DNA from: Carcharhinus longimanus
Lineage: Eukaryota
Assembly: GCA_030264375.1 (NCBI GenBank)
Contig: JASCQW010000132.1
Location: 64,086,403 to 64,150,402 of the forward strand
Reading direction: 5' to 3'
Length of the DNA stretch: 64,000 bases
Each line of letters begins with the position of its first letter. The stretch's first letter is position 1. Under the pieces are notes generated by a model. It was not told the DNA's origin. It was given only the letters and a program-made list of their open reading frames with translations, and did not search any database. The position numbers and the translations under genes were made by a program. Below, piece by piece: positions 2,481 through 59,260 of this stretch.

Positions 2481-3599
2481 CAGCCATGTATATTATAAAG
2501 CAAAACTATAGCACTGGCACATATCTATTATTTTCCTGCAGAATCTTTGCAAGAATTCTCACCTGTAGTATAGAGCAATCTCTTCAACAAGCATTAGATG
2601 TGCCATGATGTCACCAAGGAGCCAATAATAGCAGTTAGCAGCAGGACTAAAGAAAAAGGATCCAGTGTGTGATGATTTTTAGATGTAAATATTCACATGT
2701 TGACTGGGATCCCAAAATGCTGGCTATTAGATTTAAACAATGAGAANNNNNNNNNNNNNNNNNNNNNNNNNNNNNNNNNNNNNNNNNNNNNNNNNNNNNN
2801 NNNNNNNNNNNNNNNNNNNNNNNNNNNNNNNNNNNNNNNNNNNNNNNNNNNNNNNNNNNNNNNNNNNNNNNNNNNNNNNNNNNNNNNNNNNNNNNNNNNN
2901 NNNNNNNNNNNNNNNNNNNNNNNNNNNNNNNNNNNNNNNNNNNNNNNNNNNNNNNNNNNNNNNNNNNNNNNNNNATGTAGAACTTTGGATTTGAAGAAAT
3001 GAATTGAGGAGTGACACTATCGGGAAACAGAGAGGAGCCCTGGAGATAAAAGAGCATGAAAGGGAGACAGCAACGAGACTTCATAAAGAAACACAAGAGG
3101 GAGAGGAAGAGACAATTGGTGAGCGACAGCTGAGTAAACACTTCATATAAAGTTTAAGGTATATCATCCTGACAACATACCACCCTGAAGTCAAATCTAC
3201 AGCCACAGAAATGCTTCTTTTCTCCTCTAACTATGGAATCCCCTTCCAATATTGCACTTCTGCTCTTCCTCCTCCCCTCTTATGCAGCTAGGCCACCTTG
3301 GTGCTACAAAGTTGGGTCTTGCTACAATCCTGAAGAATCATTTCACTCACCAGTATCTAAAATGCAGAAGCATTTAGAGAGCGAGGTAGCCTTAAAGGAT
3401 TTCTGCACTACCTGCCTGTTTCTCTGAGATACTCTGCCAGTCAGCCATTCTCTCTCCACCTTTGTACATCTTATCTGCAGTGTGATCACCTCTCTAAATC
3501 TCCTATCCACAGAATCCTCAGCCTTGTGGATGCACCACTGTGACTCCAGCCACTCTCAAGTTTCACAACCCTGGAGAGCAGGACCTCAAGTGCAATAAT

Positions 3600-8049: not shown

Positions 8050-8285
8050 AGGGATAGGAGCAGACTTCTGCTCCTATTTCCAAGTCACTCACCATCTTGA
8101 CTTGGAAATATATCACTTTTCCTTTCTGAGTCAAAAGATCTCACAGCACTGTTGGTGTACCTACCACGTGGCCTGCAGTGGTTCAAGAAGGCAGCTCACC
8201 ACCACCTTTTCAAGTGCGATTAGGGATGGGCAATAAATGCTGACCTAGCCAGTGACAACCACATCCTGTAAATGAATTTTTAAAA
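8050..8285 (+). mobile_element. CR1/L2-clade LINE 3' end
   Basis: ttcaagaaggcagctcaccacc...tagggatgggcaataaatgctg tail; similar tails at ~32440, ~39480 and ~51370. Confidence 0.65.
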
Positions 8286-10249
8286 ATCCTTTGTGTTTAC
8301 CCAATCTCTGTGGCCCATCTCAATCTATAGCATTGCATGCTCATTGACCCACTAGACACTGTCTAGAAACAAAGAAACTTATAATGATGGTAGGATACAT
8401 AAAAAACAACTTAGAAAAAGGTAAGTAATTCATAACTTTCTTCTATGTTTAAAAAAAATTACTACAAGTTAATAAAAGTGTCAATCATTCAGACCCTTTG
8501 ACATATTAATAACAAAAGACACAAATATTTGAAACCATTTATTTTGTAAACAAACATTGTGAAATTGACAGCAGGGATCAGAAAGTCTGAGCTGGCAATA
8601 AAATAATGTTTTCTCTGGGTTGCAGCTGTTTCATCAAGTTTAATGGATGTCCGGATTGGCTTGGCTGAGAGCCCAGACAACTAGTACTCATGTTGGAACC
8701 CCACCCACTTCCATTCGATGGGATTGGAAATGTCAATGCACAATGTATATGCAGAGCAGGCGATGCTTGAAGGTTGGATAGGTGAGTTGTTTGGAGGTAT
8801 ATATAGTAGTAGCGAGGTCAGGAAATGAATTGGACTGATTGGAATTACATCTCTGAATCTGAAGAATTAGCATGTTTTTTGTACGAGCATTCAAAAATAC
8901 ATCCCTGACCATTGTGTTGGAAAATGCATTGATCTGTCAGTTTTTGAGAATCATTGGCTTTTTAATCCAGTGAAAGACCTCTAAGAACAAAACAGACACC
9001 AAAAAAGAATCCAGGCAGGCAGTCATTTCAAAATGAGATGCTTCACAGGCAATCAGGCAGCATCAAGCCAGTTACGATAAATGACAACAGGGAGAGTGCA
9101 TCTAAGAGATCCTTGGTCTCTTAAACAAGGTGCAAACAGACTATTCTGATGAAGTTAAATAAGATGACTCATCGAAGTGAAAATAACATTGAGTGTTCTT
9201 TATTTTATATTGTTATATGAGAATAAATGATACTGAATGAAATAAATGACACTGATCATATTCATTTCTCTGCATATTTCTCTTCACTGTGGAATAAAAC
9301 ATTTTGAAACAAACTTTGCCTCGTCTATTGTTAATTCATGCCCTTTTTCATTGAAGAAAAGCATGTGCAAAGGACATAAAATTTCAGTTCTACTGATGGG
9401 ACATTCTATTGTTACTCCCCTGGGTGTCACTATTGTGCAAGCTGATATTGGGCAATGTGAATCAATTCCATAAAAATAAGATGCTGAAAGCATGGAATTC
9501 ACAATTCTTCAGCACAACCTAGTTTGTAATTGACAAAGTGGCTCGAGTGATAACGTTGTATTGACCCTTTGGCCAAATTGTGCGTGGCAAATATCCAAAC
9601 ATACTTTTTATCCATATTGTAGAGGTAAATAGAAACAAAGATATATAATTTATAACTCTTAAAATGCTTTCAACAGTTTAAATTCAGTTGAAACAAAGCA
9701 TTGCTAAAAAGATAGAGCAACATGCAATGATATCATTGAACATGTGGTGTCAACTCAGAATAATGGAAAATGTTACTGTTTCTGCCTAATTATTAAGGCT
9801 TTGTTTGCAATCTTAATTGGTTAGATTGGGGCTCCTGTGAATTGATAGCAGCCTGGCTGCTGAAAGAACGTTTTGTTGTTTTTCAGCAGGAGGTTTTCTT
9901 AACCCCTTTGGGTAATCAGATAGAATAATCCCAGAGATGGATTCTGCATGGATAGGCCATATTTGTTGAGGAATTTAAAACAATCCAAATTTTTACTATT
10001 TGGTGTTTTGAAGTTTCTCTGAAGACTTCTCCAGCTACTCATAGTGAGAATTGGTGAAATGTATTCTTTGGACTGAAGAAGTAGATTTCCTAATGGAAAT
10101 CTCTCTCTTCTTAGGATGAGGAAGATCAGGAGGAAATTAAAAAAGTATAGACTGGCTGAACTTAGGGTAAGGCACCACAGAAAATACTTGTTTCAACCCA
10201 CTCAGTAGGTCTTACACACCAAGGAGATCTCAGATTTCTCAGGGGACTA

Positions 10250-11400
10250 ATGCAACTGCTGGCTGCAGCCCCAGCCAGCCCACCTTAACAAGGGAAAATC
10301 CATGACGTTGAAAGTGACCACTGCTGTGGATTATCTTCCCAGGTAATTTCCAGTTACTATTGTCCAATCTGTCAAGAAGCAGCATTGATATCCTTTGCTG
10401 ACAGACTCACAATTTATTACATTCTTTGTAGAACCCAAGGAACAAATAGATTAAGCAGCTAATTCTGTTGATTTGCAGTGTTCTTTTGGGAACCAAGGGC
10501 AACTGATAGAACTTATGTGATAGCTCCATATGGGAACCTGTTCAATTTCATGAATAAGAAAGGCTTTATTCAATCAACTCATCTTATCCTGCAAGTTACC
10601 TACTGCATCAATCTGCAATGCCAACTGTGATGTCTCAAAACCCTGAGTCAGGATAATTGTTTAGGAACCAGTGTTCTTCCCTGCAGTCATAGCTAATAAT
10701 TCTGCTCAGGCAACACAGATTAAGGAGAACACATGCATAATTAGGTACAGGAGAGTACAAGAACTGTGTGAGACAGGTCATGAATATTCTGATGTTTCAT
10801 TTTGGTTGCCTCAATAAATCTGGTAGCACAATGCAGAACAGCTCATTGAAGGTCTCTGACCCCTGTTTGAGTGACAGTGGGATTCAGAAGCCGCACGAAA
10901 ACTTTGCTGGAGGCTTCACCTACGTTGCTGACTTCTCTCTTTTGTGCATGGTGCCTTGATTGCATGCACATTTTGATGCATACTTCCCATAAGAACTCTA
11001 CATCACTTGAAGTGCTGTTCCGTTCCCTTAATGTACAGTTGGTTTGCAATAACAGACATTGTAACCTGCAGGTTTGTGCCTGCTATCCTCACAGCAGTCA
11101 TGACATCACCATTTGGTGGCAAATTCCAACCAGCCCTCCAGGATGTAGGCTTGCTATTGGATGACAAGGGTTATCCCCACCTGACTCAAATCAGGAACTC
11201 ACATACACCTGCACAGTAGGAATACAATCAGAGCCATGCCGCCATTGAACATCATAGAATTTATAATCAATATCTTCCCACAACACTTTCACTGCTTGGA
11301 TCATTCAGGACGAGCTCTGCAAAACTCAGCTGAGCAGGTATTTATAGTTGTGTGCTGCATGCTACACAATGAGGCTTTCATGAGGGAACAGCCCTTGCCA
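10250..11400 (+). mobile_element. Two tandem decayed PIF/Harbinger (HARBI1-like) DDE transposase relics
   Basis: GALDCxHI-like, FRSLNVQLVC, A.YPHSSHD, LLDDKGYP, FHCLDHSG.ALQ and IVVCCMLHN motifs; an extra FGCLNKSGSTMQ C-terminal motif at ~10800 precedes the second copy. Confidence 0.85.
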
Positions 11401-12819
11401 TCCCCTACTCATTGAGGAGTAGAATTTTGAGAAACAGAGGCTACAACCTAGACAGCCTCCATCTGGAAGGGCGTGTATAAGATCAGCTCATTTAGAAGAG
11501 CTTCCGCCAACCTCAAATTGATCTGTCAAATCATTGTTAGGTCTGACTTATCTCTCAATAATCATCCCATTGTCCTCTTTCTCTTCATACTTACGCCAGA
11601 TGGACTTTAACACAATATACCAAATATTCTTCTTCTCTGCTGTAGCTATAAAGCCTGTGTCAAATGTGAAATAAAATTCAAACTTAACAAATTAAACACT
11701 ACATAATGCACACAAAATGAAATAAATCAGTATTGTACATTCCCTTCAAGCCTAGCATTTGTATATCTTTCCTTACACTAATATTCCTACAAGTTATTTC
11801 CCTACTGGATGGATCTTAGGATTGGAAGGCTGTTCTAATGGGGGAACTGTGTGGCAGCAAATAGACAAATCTCTTGTGACTTTGCATTCAGGTGGGTGAA
11901 GCCAAACACCTGGCAGTTACTTCCCCAGCAACCTCTTCTCACTGTCTCCTCATCATGTACCATGAAGGCTTCCTATCTCCGCTCCCTTTGCCTAGTGGAT
12001 ATCCAATCCAACTCCTGTACCATGGCCTCCCTCCAGAGCAATATCAGAGAACCATTTTATATGCTTTCTGCCATGTTCTCCCATTCTTCGGGTATAAGTC
12101 AAAGTTGCCTTCAGTTCCAATTGCTGTCACAATCCACCTCCCCTTTTAAAAGGTGCTGGCTCCCTTAAAGTAACATTCTGCCCTTGTCACATTGAGCTAC
12201 CACCTTCATGCAGCTAATCAGTGGCATGGATAGCACTGTCTTCATGCAGCAATCAGTTCAATCAGCAGGCAGCACATATTTTATCTGCTGCTGACATTGT
12301 GCACACAGACACAGTTTAACTGTGTACCATAAACCCTGCCCCATTTCCCTGTGATATTAAATTATACTACAAGTATAATTTATGTAAGTATAATATAAAT
12401 TATACTACAAGTACGCAGAGGATGCAATATGATTTCAAAGATAAACAGATGTTTTTTTCAAATAAATAAAGACATGGGGCAATTCAAGGAATGAGCATAG
12501 TAGTGTCTATCTGCAGAACCATAACTGTAATAACATGCAGTTTGGACTGACTAGTTTCCATTTTTGCCATACTTTCTAAAACCTTAGAGTTAGTGCTTCT
12601 GAATCTGGCAGCAATGTGCAATCTTTTATTATAATAAGAGAAAAGGTGGCTGAACTCAGGCTCAGAAATAAAAATAGTTCTGTTTCAGTTCTTTCTATTA
12701 TGCTGTGTTAGGTTTTGCAAAAGCAATTTTTATCTTGCTCAATGCTAATGCAGTTAGAATAGAAGTAAATCAATGTACATTTGAACATTTCAGAGTACAC
12801 TGATTCACTGCAAATTCTT

Positions 12820-13205
12820 TGAATTGAATTGATTTATTATTGCCACATGTATTGGCATACAGGGCAAAGTATTGTTTCTTGTGAGCTATTACAGACAAAA
12901 CATGATTTCGAGATGCTGGCATTGGACTGGGGTGAGCACAGTAAGGTTAAAGTCCAACAGGTTTATTTGCAATCACGAGCTTTCTGAGCACAGACTCACC
13001 TGATGAAGGAGTAGCACTCTGAAAGCTTGTGATTCCAAATAAACCTGTCAGACAAAACATACTGTTCATTGAGTACATAGGGGAGAAGGAAAGGATAGGG
13101 TGCAGAATATAGTGTTGCAGTTACCGATAGGGTGAAGAGAAAGATCAGCTTAATGTGTGATAGGACCATTCAAACATCTGATGGCAGCAGGGAAGAAGCT
13201 GAGTC
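12820..13205 (-). mobile_element. Rex1/Babar-like LINE 3' end
   Basis: Same family as 19928-20295 and 42388-43040 (tttattattg.cacatgtatt..atacag..aaagtattgtttcttg); interrupted by a Penelope-derived insert. Confidence 0.75.
12904..13048. mobile_element. Short palindromic Penelope-derived element with 12-bp target-site duplication and hammerhead-like motif
   Basis: TSD cagacaaaacat at 12892-12903 and 13049-13060; inverted arms acaggtttatttg.aatcacgagctttc / gaaagcttgtgattccaaataaacctgt; CTGATGA 13000-13006, GAAA 13021-13024. Confidence 0.75.
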
Positions 13206-13380
13206 ATGGATGTGAATACCTGATTGAGATAATCATTGTTCTTATTTTGACACCTTGCTCTTCATTGGTAACTGGGCAACCTAAGACCTTATTCTGCAAG
13301 ATCTGAAATTTCAGGAATTTAACATCTTTGTGAGCAATATTTATTGTGTGCAAGTATATTTTTTACAGTCTTAACACTTA

Positions 13381-14995
13381 GAGCAGAATTTTGCACTGGG
13401 AATGGAATCCTGCCCCCTCAGCCGAGAAATTCTTACCTCCTTCATCTTATGGACTTTAACACAATCTGCCAAGTACTCTATTTCTCTGCTGTAGATATAA
13501 AGCCTGTGTCAAACCTAAAATAAAATTCAAACTTAACAAATTAAACACTACATAATGCACAGAAAATGAAATGAATCGCTCTTGTGCATTCCCTTCAAGC
13601 CTAACTTGTGGAAGATGATTATATAGAATCATATGAAGTTTGCAGCACAGAGACCATTTGGCCTATCATGTTGGCACAGGCTGAAAAACAAGCCACTCAG
13701 CTTAATTCCATTTGCCAGCATTTGGTTCATAACTTTGCAGATTACAGCACTTGAGGTGAGTTTTGCAGATACTTGGTTGGTTTACTCCGCTGCTATTTGA
13801 CAACCCATCAGGAAAATAGTCTGGCCTCTAAGAGCTGCTGTCCAATCAAACACACAGCAGCTCTTTAATTCCAGCAGCACTGTTGCTGGGTGTATACAGC
13901 AGTTAGGCCCCAATGAAGATGGTTGGTGGAGCCAGAAATGAAGATAAGTGGGGAAGATGGTCCCACTGGGGCTGGGCTGGCAGGAAAATTAAGTTCCGCA
14001 CACATGAGGACAGTCTCAACAAGGATCTTGGGTTCATGTCACACTATCTGTAACCCCCATGGTTTGCCTGGGTTTGCAAAACCTCATAACTATCCTGGCT
14101 GGAGACAATACACATCTCTTTAACTGTGATTAACCCTCTCTCCTCTCACATTGTCTGTACCTTTAAGACTTGATTACCTGTAAAAACTCGCATTCCAATC
14201 ATATTAAACACTGATAAAGCTCCGGGGCCTGATGGCATTTATCCCAGGCTGCTTACGGGGGTGAGAGATGAAATTGCTGGGCCTCTGACGCAAATCTTTG
14301 TCTCTTCTTTGGACACAGGTGAGGTCCCAGAGGACTNNNNNNNNNNNNNNNNNNNNNNNNNNNNNNNNNNNNNNNNNNNNNNNNNNNNNNNNNNNNNNNN
14401 NNNNNNNNNNNNNNNNNNNNNNNNNNNNNNNNNNNNAGCCACTTTAGGACTTGAACAGCAGGTTAGGTGTAAAGATTCGCATTCTAATCAGTAATCTGTA
14501 AACTGTCTGTGCTCTATATGCTCTGTCTGAGGCCAGAACTCTCCATTCACCTGACGAAGGGACTAACCCCGAAAGTTAGTGAGTGTACTATCAAATAAAT
14601 CGGTTGGACTTAAACCTGGTGTTGTCAGACTTTTTACTACAGGAAAATTAAATGCAGGGCTGAGATACCTTAAGGGAATGCCTTCAAAGGACACAGGGCA
14701 CCAAAGGAGGTACCCTCCACCCCCTTTCTCAGCCATTAGCCCAAGCAGTGATAGCTGCCAGACTGAATGTCTGGCTTAGGCCTTTCCCACTGAAGGTCAA
14801 ACCCCAGCAGCAGCAGCAGGAGGACCCCTTTAAGTAACCACTTAAAGGCCTCAGTTCGGCACCTCTCTTGTCACTGGTAAAATTGCAGTGGAAATAGTGG
14901 CAGGCAGGTAGATGCCAGGAACAGTGCTCATGATTTGACATCCAATTTTATGGCACCCACCCAACACTCCCCCAGAGAGCTATAAAATCCACGCC
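13381..14995. mobile_element. PIF/Harbinger-type non-autonomous element with TTA TSD, carrying nested Penelope/CR1 pieces and duplicated segments
   Basis: TTA at 13378-13380 and 14996-14998; imperfect TIRs gagcagaatttt / aaaatccacgcc. Confidence 0.65.
14115..14640 (+). mobile_element. Penelope-like pseudo-LTR fragments around a CR1 RT piece (14210-14336) and an N gap
   Basis: cacctgacgaagggactaaccccgaaag...aaataaa.cggttggactt.aacctggtgttgt; CR1 peptide EIAGPLTQIF.SSL.TGEVPED. Confidence 0.7.
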
Positions 14996-15239
14996 TTAAA
15001 ATTATCTAGACCTCTCTAATATCGAGCGCTTCCTCTTACAACTGGACTCAGTAGTTGCAGTAAGTAATGACCAGTCTGCTTATTTCAACAAACTTTGTAT
15101 GAGAACAAACAGAAAGAATATTAATCAAGTTCTCTGCAATTACTTTTGGGATCTTTTAATAAAGGGAAAATAAACAAGTGCTACTTTAAGCATGCCGTTA
15201 ACTGAATGGGTTTGATAGAAAAATTCAGCCAAATATTAT

Positions 15240-15800
15240 ATAGGATCATATGAAGTTTACAGTACAGAGGCCACTCAGCCTATCATGTTGGCACTGGCCA
15301 AAAAGAAGACACTCAGCTTAATTCCACTTTCCAGCATTTAGTTCATAGCCTTGCAGATCATGGCACTTGAGGTGAGTTGAGTGTTTCTGTCTCAACTACC
15401 CTGAGTTCTGGATCATCACACCCCTCTGGGTGAAAAAATATTTCCTCAACCCCTCTTTAATCTTTCTGCCAATCACTTTAAATCTTTGTTCCTTGTCACT
15501 CTCCGTTAAAATGAAAAAGGCCCTTTCCTTCCACTCCATACAGGGTCTCACAATGTTGTACATCCCAAACAAATCTCCCCTTATCCACCTCTGCTCCAAG
15601 GAGAACAACCCCAGACTATCCAATCTTTCTTTATAGCTGCAATTTTCCAGTTCTGGTATCACCCTTGTAAATCTCTTCTGTACCCTCCTAGTAATCAGGC
15701 GACCAAATTTCACACAATACTCAAATTGTGGCCTAACTCATGTTTTATATCATTCCAACATAACCTCCCTACTCTTATATTCTATGCCTTGGCTAATAAA
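15240..15800 (-). mobile_element. CR1 LINE 3' fragment
   Basis: RVQKRFTRVIP.L...SYKERL..LGLFSLEQR..RGDL...FFTQR. Confidence 0.9.
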
Positions 15801-16573
15801 TGCCTTCTTTTATGTGCATAAATATTTACAGTTTTCAAAGCCTGCCTTCAGTATCTATTTTTGCAGTGAAAATATGCCACTCTGAAGCAAAAAAAATCAG
15901 ATTAAAACATATTGGACAAAAGAGCAGTAATCAAACGTTAAATGAAAATAAAGCATCGCTGTCACTTTCTACAATCCCAGAATGGTCACTCAAACATTTA
16001 TCATCATTTGTTTGTTGGAAAACCCAGCAAAAAACCTGGCAACAACCCGTTATACCAATTTGCATGCAGAGAGCAGAAAGATGATGATGATGACTGCCAA
16101 TACAATTACTTTGATGAGTGCAAATGGTAAGCAATCATCTCTTATGGATTATTTTCTTGCTTTATTAAGTCAGAAATGTCGGAGATAGGAACAGTAGGTG
16201 AAAACACCACTGGACACGTGGTCAGAATACCAGGTCACAGGAATGCCAACACAAGATCACAACAGGAATAAATACAGGTTTTATCCTAATGAGAGGCCTG
16301 TTGGCAACACTGATGAACAGTTGGTTCAAGAAATGTAACAAAATGATAATGAGAAGCATTTCGCCCACTGTTTGAAAATAGATGCTAAATTTCTGTGGCT
16401 CTGGGTACTTGCAGTGTATGTGCTTGCTCCCAAAGTAATGCAAATTATGGGATAATGAGGGCATAGACTTTTATCCAAAAGATTTCAATATTTACGGCAG
16501 AAGTGCACCAGACTCAAGTTAAACTAAAAGGTTTGGTGTTTTTGTACGTTTTTCTGTTCAGATATTAGCCTGA

Positions 16574-16912
16574 TCATAGAAACTCTACAGCGCAGAAAGA
16601 GGCCATTCAGCCCATCGCATCTGCACCAACTACAATCCCACCCAGGCCATACCCCCATATCCCTACACATTTACCTGCTAATCCCTCTAAACAATGCATC
16701 TCAGGACACTAAGGGGCAATTTTAGCATGGCCAATCAACCTAATCCACACATCTTTGGACTGTGGGAGGAAACCAAAGCATCCGGAGGAAACTCATGCAG
16801 ACACGAGGAGAATGTGCCAACTCCACACAGACAGTGACCCAAGCCGGGAATCGAACCCAGGACCTTGAAGCTGTGAAGCAGCAGTGCTGACCACTGTGCT
16901 ACCGTGCTGCCC
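16574..16912 (-). mobile_element. HE1-like tRNA SINE, near full length
   Basis: Reverse complement of gggcagcacggtagcacagtgg...ggttcgattcccggcttggg head with CR1-type tail. Confidence 0.9.
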
Positions 16913-17379
16913 ATTTAGCTTGATCTTGGTGGTATTGACTGAAGTAGCACAAGAGATCGTAGAATTTAAAACTCATGTGAGTTATGCCCATGACCAGTTT
17001 CAATAAGTGTGTGCCACTTGAGGAACTTTGGCTCAGAGCTGGTGAAATGATGCACCAGAGAGGATGAAAGTTACCTATAGAAGTTATTTCAGGAAGTAGT
17101 CACACCCTCAGGTTAACTATGTTAGATTGAATTGTGGTCAGGACAAAAGGGTGTGACTAGAATTGAGTGGGTACAGGGATTAAGAAGGCATGAGCCTCTT
17201 AATCACTTGTTTAACAGGTTTGAGGCTCATGCAGCTTGTGTGAACTAATTCTAATAATTTTAAATTTAATTTTGATTGGATGAATCTAATTGCTGAAGGC
17301 AGCCTTGAGGGTGAGATCATAGAGTACATTCTGAAATGAACCACAAAGGTAATAAACAAGGGGCATAGGGTAAATAATG

Positions 17380-18110
17380 ATTTGAACATTCATGGAGTAA
17401 TATCCCTTCCTATTGACAAAGATTGCCGGCTGGTCGATGGGTATGATGCAATCAATGGCTCCCTGGATGTGAGAGAATCCTGCAATTGTGGTTAATATTC
17501 TGGCTCATTCAACCTGGCTGGCTTGGCTTGAAATGAATGAATATTCTTAANNNNNNNNNNNNNNNNNNNNNNNNNNNNNNNNNNNNNNNNNNNNNNNNNN
17601 NNNNNNNNNNNNNNNNNNNNNNNNNNNNNNNNNNNNNNNNNNNNNNNNNNTAACCACCTAAAAATAGCGTCAATCACCAGTGTGACAGAGCTATGCACAT
17701 CTGACTGGGAAACTCCACAAAGATCACCCACTGACCCTTGGAAAGATCCAGAAATATGAATGTTAAGGGCTGCAAGGTACTTGAGAGTCACAGGCATTGT
17801 GCATTCACCCATACAGCTGGAGGCTATCTCCTGCCAAATGAATGTGATGGTGTCCCTTGAAAAGCAAAGCCTCATGCCGCATTGGACTTTGATATTTCAA
17901 GGTAATTTGGTCTCTGTTTGTACACTCTGGAAGCTGAATTCACAACACCATCTTCCTTGCCCAACTTGTTGGCTCTAAACATTCTTTGTCTGCTCTTCCT
18001 CTGAGATGATGTTTGTGACTACCTGGCCCCCTCTCTCACTTTAGCCCATGTCTTCCTCCTCAGAGGAGGTGATTATTTGTTTAAAGAGCTCAGACATAGG
18101 ATTCTGAGGA
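17380..18110 (-). mobile_element. Decayed PIF/Harbinger transposase, N-terminal half
   Basis: PVTLK..AALN...SGSFQGSVGDLCGVSQ..VH..V..V.DA.F, then a GF..IQGAIDC-like segment near 17440-17490. Confidence 0.85.
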
Positions 18111-18244
18111 TGAAGTATTATGGTGATTTTTAGCAAATATGACATTAGAGTGAAAGACATTTTGCATCTGAATGTTGTCTGACCATTGACAGTCCCACAG
18201 GGTTTTGCAATGAAGTGTACCTTAAGTCTACTTTTTGCCGGCTT

Positions 18245-18751
18245 AGAGTCATAGAATTGTTTGGATTTACAGCATGGAGACAGGCCCTTTGGCCCAACTT
18301 GTCCATGCTGTCCTTTTTTTTAAAGCCCTAAGCTATTCCCAATTCTCTGCATTTGGCCCATATCACTCTATATCCATTGTACCCAGATAACTATCTAAAT
18401 TGTACCCGCCTCTACTACTACCTCTGGCAGATTGTTCAAGACATTCACCACCTCTGTGTGAAAAAATTGCCCCTCTGGACACTTCTGTATCTCTCCCCTT
18501 AAACCTATGCCCTCTAGTTTTAAACTCCCCTACCTTTTGGAAAAGATACTGACTATCTTGCTGATCTGTGCCCCTCATTATTTTATAAACCTCTATAAAA
18601 TCACCCCTCAGCCTCCTACGCTCCAGAGAAAAAAGCCCCAGTCTCTCCAGCCTCTCCTTATAATTCAATCCATCAAGTCCTGATAGCATCCTAGGACATC
18701 TTTTCTGCACTCTTTCTAGTTTAATAATATCGTTTTTATAATAGGATGACC
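18245..18751 (-). mobile_element. CR1 LINE 3' fragment
   Basis: YKERLERLGLFSLERRRLRGDFIEVYKIMRG...TRGHRFK. Confidence 0.92.
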
Positions 18752-19927
18752 NNNNNNNNNNNNNNNNNNNNNNNNNNNNNNNNNNNNNNNNNNNNNNNNN
18801 NNNNNNNNNNNNNNNNNNNNNNNNNNNNNNNNNNNNNNNNNNNNNNNNNNNAAATAGGATTACTAGTCTGCACTGGTCTCATATAGTCAAAAATGAAGTA
18901 CCAGTAAAAATTGGAAAATATGAGTACTGATCCAAACTGTTTTTTCCTAGTTCACTTACAACCTAAAAATATTACCACTGATGTTAATATTTACATTGCA
19001 ATCAGGATGACGCATTGCCAAGGCTTCTGCAGAAACAAACATTTTTGGTGGGTCTTTAGAGAAGACATTGCAGTAAGAAATGAAATAGTAATTTGTGACT
19101 TGCTAATTAATTGTCCTCATTCTATTATTCTGAATGTTGTGGAATCAACAGCATCAGAAGCTTAAGTGAACATTGAACACATTCCTCTTAAACTGATCCT
19201 ATAAAGTGTGTCAAAGTACCTTAGAATTTTTGCAGACCTCATCTTTACTTGCAAAGTCAAACTTTGTGATTATTTTTATTGCAATGCAATATTCTTCAAC
19301 ACTTCCCTGGAAATTTATGCCTTGTAGAATCTTGCAGCATCATGCCAAACTGAATGACAACAGTCAAGACTCAGGAAAGTCTGTGCATATGTGCTGCTGA
19401 AGCTTAACCAACTGAACCACATAGCCTGCCAGCTCAGATACTTATTTGTTCATCGAAGAACTCCCTATCATTTAGCACATTGCAGGACTATCTGGAGATA
19501 AGTGAGGGGAATCATAGATCCTGGATTTAGATCTGTACCTCTGGGCATCATGAATGAACTGCATTGATTGGTAAATCATTATCTCACCTTATTAATCTAC
19601 CTGGCAACAGGTATCGCATTACTGAATGTGACACAAAGAGTTCCAGTCTCCCATCAGTCCTGCCATGCTGGAGCCTCCTTTTTTTTTAAGTATTCTACCT
19701 CACTCTCTTCCAGCAAAGATAATGCTAGTTGGCCATTAGACAACTAACAAACATCACTGTGTTAGACAGTGGACTCTGGAAAACACTCTGGATTATTCCA
19801 TGACATAATTTCAATGTTACATATATTCCATAAGACATAATGGGCAATTGCCAGGTAACTGTGTATACTCCTCCATTATTGACTTTCCACTCTAGTTCAG
19901 TTTAAGGAAGGTCACCAACAGGGTCTT

Positions 19928-20295
19928 TTGATTTGATTTGATCTGATTTGATTTATTAGTGTCACATGTATTAGTATACAGTGAAAAGTATTGTTTCTTG
20001 TGTGGGAGACAGACAAAGCATAGTTCATAGAGCTGGAAAGGAGAGAGTGCAGAATGTATTGTTACAGTCACAGCTGGGATATAGAGAAAGATCATATTAG
20101 TGCAAGGTAGGTCCAGTCAAGAGTCTGGTGGCAGCAAAAAAGAAGCTGTTTTTAAATCTGTTGGAAGATTTAATGGAAGAAGGTGAAACAGTGTATGTTA
20201 TATTATGCTGGCTGCTTTCTCGAGGCAGCGGGAAATGTAGATGGAATCAATGGATGGGAGGCTGGTTTGTGTGGTGGACTGGACTACATTTACTA
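19928..20295 (-). mobile_element. Rex1/Babar-like LINE 3' end
   Basis: (gattt)n tail and family 3' UTR shared with the 42388 copy. Confidence 0.75.
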
Positions 20296-21196
20296 CCATT
20301 ATTAATTGTCATTATCAATGAGGAAGTTACCTAGACTTTATTTGAATAGGGGAAAAAAGTGGCTGTCATTTTGCCAAGAGGTGGATCAGCTTTAACGAGA
20401 TAACTTTAGTTGGGGCCAGTAGGGTCCTCAGTCAATCTTTGTGCCCAAGTTAGTGTAGGAAAACTTAACCACAGTTCCCCCTCCTCTCCATCCACTGACA
20501 CCTGCAGAAAGGTGTGTACATGTGCTCATATATATGTTTGTAGATTTGGGATGTGAACAAGACCACTTTTAGCTCTAATTCCCTTCCGGACTAGAAATAA
20601 CACAAGCAATACTTATTGCCAAGGCTTGCACATGAATAATAGGCACAAAATGAGGGATGTGGACATGCCCAATTCCTCCTGAACAATCTTCAACAACATC
20701 AGGAGGGAAGCTGAGACCAAGGGAAAACTTGGCAACCAACAGAAAACTTCTGCTTGCAAATGGAACTTGTGCTCAGTTCCATGAAATACAGCTGATTGAT
20801 TTTGCGGATGCTGACATATATGTATTGTATTTTAACACTACTATCCCTAAAGGAATCTTGAATATAGTTTCCAGTTACTGAGCAATCGCAGCTCAAATAA
20901 TGAAACCCAAGAATAAGTGACAAATCTCCATCTTCATAATAATCCACACTCTGAATCATGAAAGAAATAAGAAAGGCAAAACACAAAGGGAAAACAATGT
21001 TATGGCAACTGAGAAATCAGAGTACTAATCACATGTAAGGTTAATGATACTGCTGCTCAGCCAATCAGCACCATTCAGTATTCTTCCTGTTTCACAGCTA
21101 TTTATAAGGCAGAATATATAAAACAAACTCCAGTTAACACATTTACATGGGCTTTGATTTTAATTAGCTTGTTGGAGAGGGAAAGCTGCACACATG

Positions 21197-22050
21197 GGCT
21201 GCGATTCTCCCATCCCACTGCAGGAGGATCTCATGGCGGGTAATGTGCGGCACTTGTGCATGCATCACCCAGCACCGGATTTCCAGTGGCATCTGCTCCA
21301 CGCCAGAAATTGGCAGGGAGGCATGGAAGTAATTTAAATATTACTTTAAATGTGATTTAAATATGATTAGCTGGCCTGTGACTGGTGCCCCCTGGGCATT
21401 GGCAGCCTGGCAGTGCCAGCCTGGATCCCCTAGCACTGCCAAAGAGGCAAAGTGCCTATGCCCAGGGGCACATTGGCATTGCCCAGTTGGCCATTGGGCA
21501 GTGCCAAGGGGATGGAGCATATAAGGATAGGGCTTGGTGGGACAGGGCCTTGGGGGGAAATCAGTGAGGGTGGGGGGTCATGCTGCTACTCTGCAGTCGG
21601 AAATGATGAGGGAAGGAGGAAGGCCAGTGACCTGGTGGGTTGTGACTGCGGGAAGGGAGGTTTGGAGATTGGACGGTTGGGACTGGGCCCGGGAGTAGCT
21701 GGGGTGGGCCACGATCAGGCTGTGGGGTGTGGGGGCAGTGGGTGCGGAGAGGCAGAGGGCCAGCAATGTGGGGGTTGTGGGGATGACCTGAGATCAAGCT
21801 GGGCAGCAGTAGGGAGGCTGGCAGTGTGGGGCCACTGCACATGTGCTGGTCTCGACACTAACAGCGGCATTGAACGCACCCTCTCCAGTGGGGATAGGCC
21901 CAGGCCTCTATTTTTTAATGATATTCACGTTGGTGGCCTCTGCAGTGTAGAGTGGGAGATTCTTCTTTGAACTCCCACTGAAAAAAACATTGTGAATTAC
22001 TCCAGTTTCCGTGTGAATTCGACACTTCGAATTTTTTGAGGAGCGTTCTG
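21197..22050. mobile_element. GC-rich Harbinger-type non-autonomous element
   Basis: Begins gggctgcgattctccc; GC-rich body in an AT-rich background; degraded right end. Confidence 0.6.
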
Positions 22051-23979
22051 GACACAGTATTTGAAAAGAAACATAAACCACAGAATAAATTGCAGTGAAC
22101 TTTGTTTCAGCAGATTATTGAAGTTTAAGTATTTTTTATTAACTAAAACCTCTCATGAGCTATCAACTATTAGTTTTTCCTTAGGACTGATTGGAAAATG
22201 CTGTTGTGCTAGTGACATAAGTAAATGTCAAGATTATTGCATAGCAACCATTTACTGCAGAGTCCTTGAATTTGTAGAACAGAGGGAAGCTGAGGCCATT
22301 TCAAGACCTTTTTGGAGCGGAGTGCTTTTTCCATCTTGAGAGCTTAATTGAAATAAAATACTACTTGCTACTTACCTAGATCAAGAGAATTTGATTGCTT
22401 GATAAGCCAATTTTAAGGAAAGGAAAAAGGTGACCAAATTTTCCATCTTGATCCTAGAATTTAGAGTTTGAGGTTTGCCACAACACTTATCAGTGTGCTG
22501 ATATAGGAACGTTTCTCAAACTATTAAAGTCATGTGAATGCATTCATGTTTGGGCAAACAGTGAACAAAAGCTGATAACAACATCAGTTCTGTCCCTACA
22601 TTGGGTGGCTTAATTGTTTGCATTTGGAAGAAATGCCAAGTTTGAAAGCAAGCACTTAACTGGATTTTGTCCAATGGGTGACTTTTGCCAACTCTTGGCC
22701 GAGCTGTTTGAGTCAACAATTGCGTGTAAGCGAAAGTAAAACTTTTTTGTGTGGCAGTGGGACAGATTGCTGTCAGGATTTCACATATGCAAATGTCCTG
22801 TTGACAAAAGCTTGATGTATTAGTACTGGCACTGACTCTTCCTTCTTCCCAGAGGAGAAAAGGATATTGTGGAGACAGGAAAAGTAATTTGGAGGTGATG
22901 GATGAGTGGCTTTTATTTCTCCATTAGATTTCAAATTGGCAAAGAACATATAGTAGTTTATTATTTTAGGAAAACAAAAATTACTGAGAAAAATGGATAA
23001 TCAAAATATTTCCCCAATATAAAGACAACATATGAGATGTTCTTGGAAATTGGAAAAGACCTGAATGTTGTTTTCAATACTAGATTACAGAACACTCTGA
23101 AACTCCAGAAACTCACCTTCTTCTTGTTGATTTTCACAGGTTAAAACGACTCCCTATGTGACTAATACAACAACATCCAGGGGAAAACTGGATGGATTGC
23201 ATCCCCACTCAATTATATTTGTCATTAACTTCACAATGGTCTTCTTCTTGCTCTAAGTTTCACTGATGCTATGATTTTGACATTGAAAGTAGTGCTGGGA
23301 ATAGGGGCTTTTGTCCGTACCATGGAGATGAGCAGCCCATTAAGATGGTGTGGAAATTAGTCACATTAGTTACCATAGGGGTGACTTTGTGGCCTTGCCA
23401 ACATTTTGCTGCTGGTGGAGCTTCTCTCCCATCCCACCAACTCAATGGTAGTAGCTTTCCTGCAGTAGGCTGTGAACTGTCAGAGCCACAGACTTTATGC
23501 CCTCATGACATGGCTATGGGCTGAAAAGGCAGTACCTGTGATCCAGACTATTCCTCTGGGGGGTTTTCCTCTCCAAACTGAGATGCATTGTGGCTTCATC
23601 CCTCGTATTTTTGATTTGGATCCTGCATTCCTGACCTATCTCAACGGCACTCACCTTGCCTGACGGAACGATTGAGACTCCAGGGCTGACAGCCATTGGG
23701 AACTCATCCACCACCCTTTTTAGACAAGCAAGGCCAGAGGCAACTATAGAGGCCACCTCCGAGAAGAGTCTGTTATCATCTTGCTCCTGCCAAGTGGCCC
23801 TGAAGTCAAGGCCCCAAAGGTAGTGTGACCAAACCAATTTAGAATTATCAGTTGGGTTCACAATGTGACTGACTTGTGGAAAGCTATATATGCCATGTAA
23901 GGTGGTCCACACTNNNNNNNNNATTTTAGTGGAATTAGTTTGCCTGCTTAACTTGACAATTTTTAAAGGCCAACACATA

Positions 23980-56460: not shown

Positions 56461-56834
56461 ATGAAGATCAATGTGAAACGCAAATGGAGCTGGCTTGGGA
56501 AGAGCTGTATTCTGATCAGCTTATTGTGGATTACTTATGTCATCTTAGAACTGTCAATCTCCACTTTTCGCAGCTCTGCTGGACAGAGCAGTGGTGAGGA
56601 GAGGAAGTACAGAGCCATTTCTAATCAGCAAAGTGAGGATCTATCACGCCCAGTGTATGAGAAACCTGATGTTGATCTGCGTAGTCCAGGGGAGCTGGGT
56701 AAGGCTGTGCATTTGCAGCTGAATGCTGATGAGAAAAAGAAAGAGGAGGAGAGTATTGAGAGATACGCTATAAATGTTTATGTAAGTGATAAAGTATCGC
56801 TGCATCGCCACATCCAAGATGATCGGATGCCTGA
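56461..56834 (+). CDS. GALNT4: Polypeptide N-acetylgalactosaminyltransferase 4, first coding exon (cytoplasmic tail, TM anchor, stem); exon acceptor AG at 56402-56403
   Basis: WSWLGKSCILISLL..Y...EL..STF..SAG, EDLSRPVYEKP, GELGKA..LQLN.DE, IERYAINVYVSDKVSLHRHIQD.RM.E closely match recalled human GALNT4; Kozak gcaccATG; donor GA|GTAAGT, phase 2. Confidence 0.92.
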
Positions 56835-56876
56835 GTAAGTGCTTTTCGAACTTGTAGTAGACCATGCATAATTATT

Positions 56877-59024: not shown

Positions 59025-59260
59025 TGGCCAATCCACCTACTCTGCACCTCTTGGGGCAATTTACCATGGCCAATCCACCAAATCTCCACCTCTTGGGGCA
59101 ATTTACCATGGTCAATCCACATAACTTGCACATCTTGGGGCAATTTACCATGGTTAATCCACCCAATTAGCACTTCTTGGGGCAATTTAAAATGGCCAGT
59201 CCACCTAACCTGCACCTCTTGGGGGTAATTCATGCCCAACCTACCTAACCAGCACCTCTT
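59025..59260. repeat. 42-bp tandem repeat derived from an internal SINE segment, ~5.5 copies
   Basis: Unit ~tggccaatccacctaacctgcacctcttggggcaatttacca; 14-aa periodicity in overlapping ORFs. Confidence 0.9.

Follow-up and report, generated by a model that had tools for sequence, protein, structure and literature searches.

A probable disabled multi-exon gene for a GPI-type surface protein between NFX1 and GALNT4–GALNT12 in Carcharhinus longimanus

Introduction

Unitary pseudogenes are disabled genes that are not duplicated, such as GULO and urate oxidase in primates, and they are defined by an intact orthologue elsewhere. GPI-anchored surface proteins carry a C-terminal GPI signal and a Ser/Thr stalk. 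In this study, we analyzed a window of 64,000 nucleotides from Carcharhinus longimanus, in which an initial annotation had proposed a phase-consistent exon chain for the fossil of a Cys-rich, GPI-anchor-like protein. The chain shares with GULO and urate oxidase a retained exon-intron layout, scattered stops, a frameshift, a transposon within an exon, and a genome in which no working paralogue was found, whereas those pseudogenes have an intact orthologue in another species and none was found for this chain. Its last exon shares with GPI-anchored proteins a Ser/Thr-rich stalk, a small-residue omega candidate, a polar spacer, and an uncharged hydrophobic end; however, a signal peptide was not found and the ectodomain matched no family in Pfam, NCBIfam, or PDB. 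No account of the locus or of such a gene loss was found among the literature listed.

Results

The exon-like chain sits between NFX1 and GALNT4–GALNT12, and its pieces point away from NFX1. The 5′ end of NFX1 falls within a larger assembly gap immediately ahead of the window, and the first 19 kb of the window contain five N gaps, each of at least 100 nt. We reproduced all coordinates and AG/GT ends of the initial annotation as well as its phases and translations, and the peptides quoted in it were the true translations (Table 1). AG precedes nine of the ten segments and GT follows eight of the nine that need a donor; both exceptions coincide with the borders of an insert, at 13380/14999. The phases match at seven of the eight junctions of the nine exons and break at 19570/22631, where the break had already been pointed out. 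None of the ten segments overlapped repeats in a self-BLAST of 224 kb.

Table 1 Features of the proposed exon chain and its surroundings (positions in the window)
Feature	Position	Strand	Remarks
Putative exon 1	8331..8420	+	Phase 2>2; TAG at 8353 in the proposed frame
Putative exon 2	8626..8781	+	Phase 2>2; TGA at 8666 and 8768
Harbinger-type transposase remnant, broken	10893..11381	+	In putative intron 2; outside the proposed gene
Putative exon 3, 5′ piece	13369..13380	+	AG acceptor behind a T-run; ends in the left TTA copy; without donor
Insert, 1.6 kb	13381..14995	.	TTA on both flanks; imperfect inverted ends; nested repeats
Putative exon 3, 3′ piece	14999..15059	+	20 open codons; ends in phase 0; GTAAGT donor
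Putative exon 4	15981..16126	+	Phase 0>2; 48 open codons
Putative exon 5	19006..19072	+	Phase 2>0; 22 open codons
Doubtful linker exon, 85 nt	19486..19570	+	Frameshift required; TGA at 19565
Putative exon 7	22631..22735	+	Phase 2>2; 34 open codons
Putative exon 8	22853..22883	+	Phase 2>0; 10 open codons
Putative last exon	23140..23256	+	Thr-rich stalk, candidate omega site, spacer, hydrophobic end, stop
GALNT4, first coding exon	56464..56838	+	Top PDB match GALNT4, E = 8e-38; downstream neighbour

The splice sites were of uneven quality when ranked within the 224 kb. The donor of exon 1 belongs to the strongest class (8.07 bits), and exon 2 has an acceptor in the top 1.6% and a donor in the top 0.4%. 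The acceptor of exon 8, which is open in phase and lies 256 nt upstream of the last exon, is in the top 0.1%, and that of the last exon (7 bits) is in the top 0.3%. Exon 4 was recovered by the exon screen and also picked by the chain search. The sites of exon 5 are weak (acceptor top 12%, donor top 8%), and those of exon 7 are the weakest of the chain (top 23% and top 16%, respectively). A 36-nt candidate exon at 22185-22220 was phase-neutral, left the chain unrepaired, and was rejected.

The coding signal of the chain was compared with chance. Five stops lie in the proposed frame, namely the TAG of exon 1, the two TGA codons of exon 2, a TAA at the insert junction, and the TGA of the linker. 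About five stops in 284 codons compare with an expectation of 15.7 when selection is left out of account, and one frameshift comes in addition; exons 3 (3′ piece), 4, 5, 7, 8, and 9 together hold 172 codons without a stop. In exons 1 and 2, another frame has two stops against three in the proposed one, and in exon 1 the phase 1 frame has as few as the proposed one. Three of the 21 control strands, which averaged 29.9 (sd 13.4), exceeded the best chain score of 46.9. Real genes used as positive controls scored only 51.7-76.7, which indicates that the scoring models are crude and of low power. On the plus strand, 82 exon pairs scored highly, and the 8331/8626 pair took only rank 18 among them, in a different frame. 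Codon and amino-acid bias were not significant (p = 0.19 and 0.06, respectively). Hence, the segments, splice ends, and phases of the proposed chain are as described, whereas an agreement of the phases beyond chance was not borne out, as three of the 21 controls scored higher.

The description of the protein as Cys-rich also failed, since Cys accounts for 13 of 275 codons (4.7%) against a background of 4.0%, and no family Cys pattern was matched. Because the ectodomain is not enriched in Cys, readings as a Ly6/uPAR, GFRA, folate-receptor, or RECK-like protein are unsupported. Folate receptor, GFRA/GAS1, UMOD D8C, tyrosinase, RECK, and ENDOU were considered as families and dropped, since none of them appeared as a search match.

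The last exon encodes a Thr-rich stalk, an omega candidate, a 9-residue spacer, and a 14-residue uncharged hydrophobic end that is not followed by a cytoplasmic tail. Among 840 acceptors of at least 3 bits on both strands of the 224 kb, three led into open frames with a hydrophobic end, and only behind the acceptor of the last exon was such an end accompanied by a Ser/Thr stalk and an omega-like site. Order-5 Markov DNA simulated over 12 Mb contained 26,979 acceptors, which gave 53 frames with a tail, 29 with a tail and an omega site, and none with all three features; these criteria were rules of our own, fixed after the last exon had been viewed. The proposed GPI-anchor-like end thus stands out from both the real and the simulated background. 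No credible signal-peptide first exon was found between the upstream gap and 15900, and such an exon could be hidden in an assembly gap. A candidate first exon at 3233-3385 was dropped because it probably derives from a repeat; on visual inspection, it looks similar to a frame close to 31800.

We also examined the insert that splits exon 3. The acceptor lies 12 nt ahead of it and the GTAAGT donor 61 nt beyond it, and the joined pieces form an exon of 73 nt that bridges phase 2 to phase 0. When the insert and one copy of the duplicated TTA were removed, an in-frame TAA remained at the joint. Target duplications of TTA/TAA are described as typical of Harbinger elements (PMC3014272). Like PIF/Harbinger elements, the insert has flanking TTA copies and short, though imperfect, inverted ends, and it shares 155 nt with a DDE_Tnp_4-related neighbourhood: its positions 13449-13603 are 90% identical to 11600-11754, beside the transposase remnant. 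This remnant gave no Pfam match itself; it had 68 matches in its own genome, and one relative has a frame of 529 codons that matches DDE_Tnp_4 at E = 2e-29. Unlike those elements, the insert has ends that are complementary only in part when terminal inverted repeats of 14-25 nt are looked for, and no further full copy of it was found. On these two grounds we infer the family rather than read it off, and the insert is likely to be a Harbinger-type non-autonomous derivative, as judged from its sequence.

In three related species (E, F, and G), which are about 5-6% diverged, position 8355 is T, so that the TAG of exon 1 becomes TAT. Among the exon-1 differences listed for these relatives, one of at least three removes the stop, and it does so in the proposed frame only. 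Both junctions of the insert are present in all three species. These species lack the stop of exon 1 but share the insert, and for the latter reason the gene is likely to be dead there as well. For the TGA codons at 8666 and 8768, no variant appeared among the matches listed for E, whose contig spans the site. Differences from E occurred at 8 of 246 exon sites and 26 of 431 intron sites (p = 0.14), and those in the exons comprised three synonymous and five non-synonymous changes. Exon divergence was therefore not significantly below that of introns, as is expected alike for a dead gene and for non-gene DNA. Furthermore, word sharing over 22000-23900 corresponded to 92-94% identity with E, F, and G, which is not above that of the 5′ introns. 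The data for another organism (D) apparently consist of sparse contigs of DNA, and none of the matches listed showed a splice joint. Among 22 runs listed, none that carried the sequence was of RNA, which speaks neither for nor against expression.

Homologues were searched with single exons or in-frame read-throughs as queries, one exon being searched sensitively. In the own genome, the three exons searched gave self matches only; this search recovers 40-50% transposase matches, and distant paralogues could escape it. As far as these three exons go, the designation "unitary" stands. A word-index search of 5.8 billion proteins gave no candidate for exon 4 or exon 2 among the longer candidates, which is a weak negative, and the read-through of exon 7 into exon 8 gave 21 candidates in the same collection, none at E <= 10. 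When exon 4 was searched with HMMER against 1.84 billion representatives, only five matches at E <= 0.001 were obtained; all were artefacts, being tandem-repeat proteins (WW, GRF, and others) whose scores were summed from weak stretches. The short query of 48 residues limits the force of this negative. Folded alone, exon 4 reached a pLDDT of 57.6 and had no Foldseek match at E <= 0.001. An exact look-up of window frames in a protein collection found neither of two and thus supplied no positive control for shark proteins.

Pfam and NCBIfam returned nothing but zf-CCCH_12 at E = 0.054, for exon 7. This CCCH zinc finger was rejected, as it scored 13.6 bits where the cut-off is 27 and the first Cys and the His are missing; CPSF4 was likewise rejected for exon 7, its PDB match appearing only at E >= 0.5. 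PDB sequences gave no match to exons 2 and 4, and the designed repeat proteins that turned up in PDB matched intron letters. Bacterial clusters without names from the ESM Atlas were set aside as recognition below the family level, and five loci from a metagenome scan proved to be short non-gene frames caught by chance through an exact 8-residue pattern. As the reading contains only about one frameshift in 850 nt, it should be near its parent, and an annotated intact orthologue from another cartilaginous fish should have surfaced in the HMMER search if present in the library. The expectation of an intact gene in other chondrichthyans or in fishes is accordingly unsupported: E, F, and G carry the insert, and exon 4 had no homologue at E <= 0.001 among the 1.84 billion representatives apart from the artefacts.

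Discussion

The region is probably an old, single-copy, multi-exon pseudogene of a predicted GPI-type surface protein, although some of the pieces may have come together by chance. This reading draws on the last exon, on the insert with duplicated TTA that interrupts exon 3, and on the stop that is absent in relatives, and not on the agreement of the phases. Provided that the frame is real, the lesions amount to five stops, one frameshift, and the 1.6-kb insert. A disabled multi-exon gene of GPI type, as initially proposed, is thus the best single reading, and it is unitary as far as the three exons searched show; the Cys-rich character and the intact copy elsewhere are unsupported.

A chance origin is possible but rather doubtful. 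The chain would then consist of AG..GT segments within 15 kb of old intergenic DNA that had been selected for matching phase and few stops, with an accidental GPI-like last exon, and this would account for the three higher-scoring control strands, the many exon pairs of equal score, the non-significant coding bias, the background level of Cys, and several weak splice sites. It would also fit the failure of single-exon searches to find a homologue or paralogue, and a tail with an omega site does arise alone 2.4 times per Mb in simulation. However, the complete arrangement of stalk, omega site, and tail downstream of a 7-bit acceptor was absent from the 12 Mb of simulated DNA, the insert falls within a phase-correct exon, and one stop is missing in relatives; moreover, the crude scoring models give the control comparison little power. 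It is improbable that the real gene is confined to the 3′ part (exons 4-9 or 7-9), dead or possibly still spliced to a gap-hidden first exon, with exons 1-3 and the linker foreign: exon 5, which ends in phase 0, cannot join exon 7, which starts in phase 2, without the linker (the phase-0 acceptors that would permit it score -12.6 and -11.8 bits), the 22000-23900 segment is no better conserved than the 5′ introns, and annotated orthologues would be expected of a gene still alive, yet none was found, even though every stop lies in exons 1 and 2, the exon-3 joint, or the linker, with exons 4, 5, 7, 8, and 9 open, and though the N gaps and the larger gap over the NFX1 5′ end offer room for a hidden exon.

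If the pieces once formed one gene, as the pseudogene reading holds, its protein would have entered the secretory pathway by a signal peptide encoded in a first exon that is absent from the chain. Cleavage by GPI transamidase at a small residue right behind the Thr run would have removed the hydrophobic C-terminal peptide, and the enzyme would have added the anchor there. The ectodomain, with about 250 residues or more, would have stood on a short Ser/Thr stalk and would most likely have served as a receptor or ectoenzyme. Decay may have begun with nonsense changes in the 5′ exons, followed by the Harbinger-type insertion into the TTA of exon 3, both before the split from the relatives of about 5-6% divergence; the TAT-to-TAG change would have come later, on this lineage.

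We tentatively consider that the region may be the fossil of a vertebrate GPI-anchored family that has no detectable member in the 1.84 billion representatives; its gene would have died in this lineage and could survive, unannotated or far diverged, in another fish, and these remains would then be its first record. At present, the locus represents a dead gene outside known families, with a fair chance of partial coincidence, and it tests no standing question. If real, it would reveal a surface protein without a name from early jawed vertebrates, and the interval between NFX1 and GALNT4/GALNT12 would be a fixed address for tracing a living copy and for dating the loss.

Proposed exon chain and neighboring genes

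A chain of ten segments had been proposed as the relic of a gene for a Cys-rich, GPI-anchor-like surface protein, and the coordinates and translations of all ten were reproduced. None overlapped a repeat in self-BLAST of the 224 kb analysed, which comprise the window (contig positions 64086403-64150402 in a 2.68-Gb genome) and flanks of 100 kb on its upstream side and 60 kb on its downstream side. AG preceded nine of the ten segments and GT followed eight of nine, the two exceptions being the ends of the insert that splits exon 3. The claimed phase agreement held at seven of eight junctions and was broken at the linker exon, as had already been marked. Against generic splice-site matrices, the donors placed within the top 0-16% of GTs, and for the acceptors the range was the top 0.1-23% of AGs. 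Over its roughly 284 codons the chain frame contained 5 stops where 15.7 would be expected, a figure that does not allow for the initial annotation's choice of segments. Cys accounted for 13 of 275 residues, 4.7% versus 4.0% among non-stop triplets, and the label Cys-rich should therefore be dropped.

NFX1 was found on the minus strand upstream of the window (zf-NF-X1 and R3H matches). Its 5' end ran into the N gap immediately before the window, and this gap of about 1.4 kb likely holds that end together with the promoter. Beyond NFX1 lay exons of a further gene, presumably contactin-associated-protein-like, and neither of the two exons tested matched Pfam. Downstream of the chain, multi-exon GALNT4 (PDB match of its first exon, E = 8e-38) was followed directly, in tandem, by GALNT12 (E = 8e-13). 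Mammalian GALNT4 is intronless and lies within POC1B; since GALNT4 is multi-exon here, the present locus may correspond to the parent of the mammalian retrocopy.

Positions of the chain, its lesions and surrounding features (window coordinates unless a flanking piece is named)
Feature	Position	Strand	Remark
Further upstream gene	L003-L005, 6-22 kb into upstream stretch	+	at least two similar exons containing Cys
Gap on NFX1 side	L012 8630-10000		
GC-rich tandem repeat	1-448, after the gap		30 nt, 15 copies
Exon 1	8331-8420	+	
Exon 2	8626-8781	+	
Broken Harbinger-type transposase	10893-12183		right end possibly near 12183
Exon 3	13369-13380 + 14999-15059	+	
Insert	13381-14995		
155-nt recurrence	13449-13603		copy of DNA beside transposase, found again only here
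Exon 4	15981-16126	+	
Exon 5	19006-19072	+	
Linker exon	19486-19570	+	
AG..GT segment	22185-22220		36 nt; good acceptor (4.8 bits); phase-neutral; three Cys side by side in one open frame
Exon 7	22631-22735	+	
Exon 8	22853-22883	+	
Last exon	23140-23256	+	
GALNT4, first exon	56464-56838	+	
Tandem repeat, first GALNT4 intron	59025-59260		42 nt, 5.7 copies
GALNT4 continuation and GALNT12	L013-L018 (contig 64150403-64210402)	+	
Second acceptor-led frame	L016, about 7207 onward	+	37 kb beyond window end; hydrophobic end, omega-like site

Comparison with chance

In a chain search, the target scored 46.9 and 21 control strands averaged 29.9 (sd 13.4), three of them above the target. Three real-gene regions reached only 51.7-76.7, so this test is weak, and it picked up only some of the proposed exons. 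Among 82 pairs on the plus strand, exons 1 and 2 together took 18th place; some of the higher-ranked pairs contain real exons, and the top score of exons 1 and 2 came in a different frame. In codon and amino-acid bias the chain was intermediate between the null and real exons (p = 0.19 and 0.06). An excess of the chain over chance was thus mostly not demonstrated, and chance assembly of the segments is a possible, though less favored, explanation.

The GPI-like end of the last exon stood out. Frames with a hydrophobic tail were opened by 2 of 280 strong acceptors. We applied a rule modelled on the layout of GPI signals that asks, in three steps, for a tail, an omega-like site and a Ser/Thr stalk. 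Under this rule, which was set after the exon had been seen, the 840 acceptors of the analysed 224 kb included 3 followed by a tail, and 23140 was the only one with all three features; among 26,979 acceptors in 12 Mb of simulated DNA, 53 had the tail, 29 the tail and omega-like site, and none all three. A second frame with a tail and an omega-like site, in L016, lay inside a GALNT12 intron; such frames are expected by chance at about this rate. That only a 3' part is real, and possibly live, is improbable, as exon 5 cannot join exon 7 without the frameshifted linker.

Lesions and comparison with relatives

The 1.6-kb insert between 13380 and 14996 has TTA on either side and partly inverted ends. 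TTA/TAA duplications are characteristic of Harbinger elements, according to a passage of PMC3014272. The insert shares 155 nt at 90% identity with DNA adjoining the broken transposase, a relative of which contains DDE_Tnp_4; this recurrence suggests a local hop. Taking out the insert and one TTA leaves an exon 3 of 73 nt with correct phases. A TAA lies in frame where the two pieces join, and this stop is therefore likely older than the insertion.

The region 22000-23900 was present in 22 sequence runs, none recorded as RNA. Word shares put two of these sequence sets from related organisms, B and C, at about 98% identity and three others, E, F and G, at 92-94%. Four of the 22 runs were compared over 8200-16500, an interval ending before exons 5-9. 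There E, F and G were collinear through introns, differing by about 5-6%, and each had contigs that spanned both insert ends. At 8355 all three had T, turning the exon-1 TAG into TAT in the annotated frame, with several contigs contributing, some possibly from elsewhere. Among the differences listed for E, none fell at the two exon-2 stops, both covered by a contig, and these stops are probably retained. Differences from E affected 8 of 246 exon sites (3 synonymous, 5 non-synonymous) and 26 of 431 intron sites (p = 0.14), a pattern that fits neutral drift in a dead gene or in non-gene DNA alike.

Homology searches and interpretation

Queries were single exons or in-frame read-throughs. Word-index protein search with exons 4, 2 and 7-8 gave no homologue, and Pfam, NCBIfam, PDB, ESM Atlas, metagenomes and single-exon folding gave nothing usable. 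Only exon 4 was searched sensitively, and its five hits among 1.84 billion representatives were tandem-repeat proteins, which we rejected as artefacts. Within the genome itself, exons 2, 4 and 7 each matched only their own locus, and nothing relevant to this locus or such a loss appeared in the open-journal literature searched. Because frameshifts are few, the reading should still be near its parent; the blanks therefore count, as far as the library includes shark proteomes, against an orthologue that is intact and annotated in another cartilaginous fish, but are compatible with a distant or unannotated one.

Taken together, the most likely reading, somewhat more probable than not, is that the chain is a dead single-copy gene for a GPI-anchored surface protein, its pieces having presumably belonged to one gene. 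The proposed unitary pseudogene agrees with the lesions and the lack of a paralogue (exons 2, 4 and 7 searched), whereas the intact orthologue that defines the class was not found. The parent protein would have been secreted via a signal peptide on a yet unfound exon, then cleaved and GPI-anchored after the Thr run. With a predicted ectodomain of no fewer than about 250 residues, raised on a short stalk, it would most likely be a receptor or ectoenzyme. The gene likely died before this lineage parted from E, F and G, and decay would have continued since. We tentatively raise the possibility, rather doubtful at present, that the chain is the fossil, and the first record, of a vertebrate family of surface proteins that has been lost.
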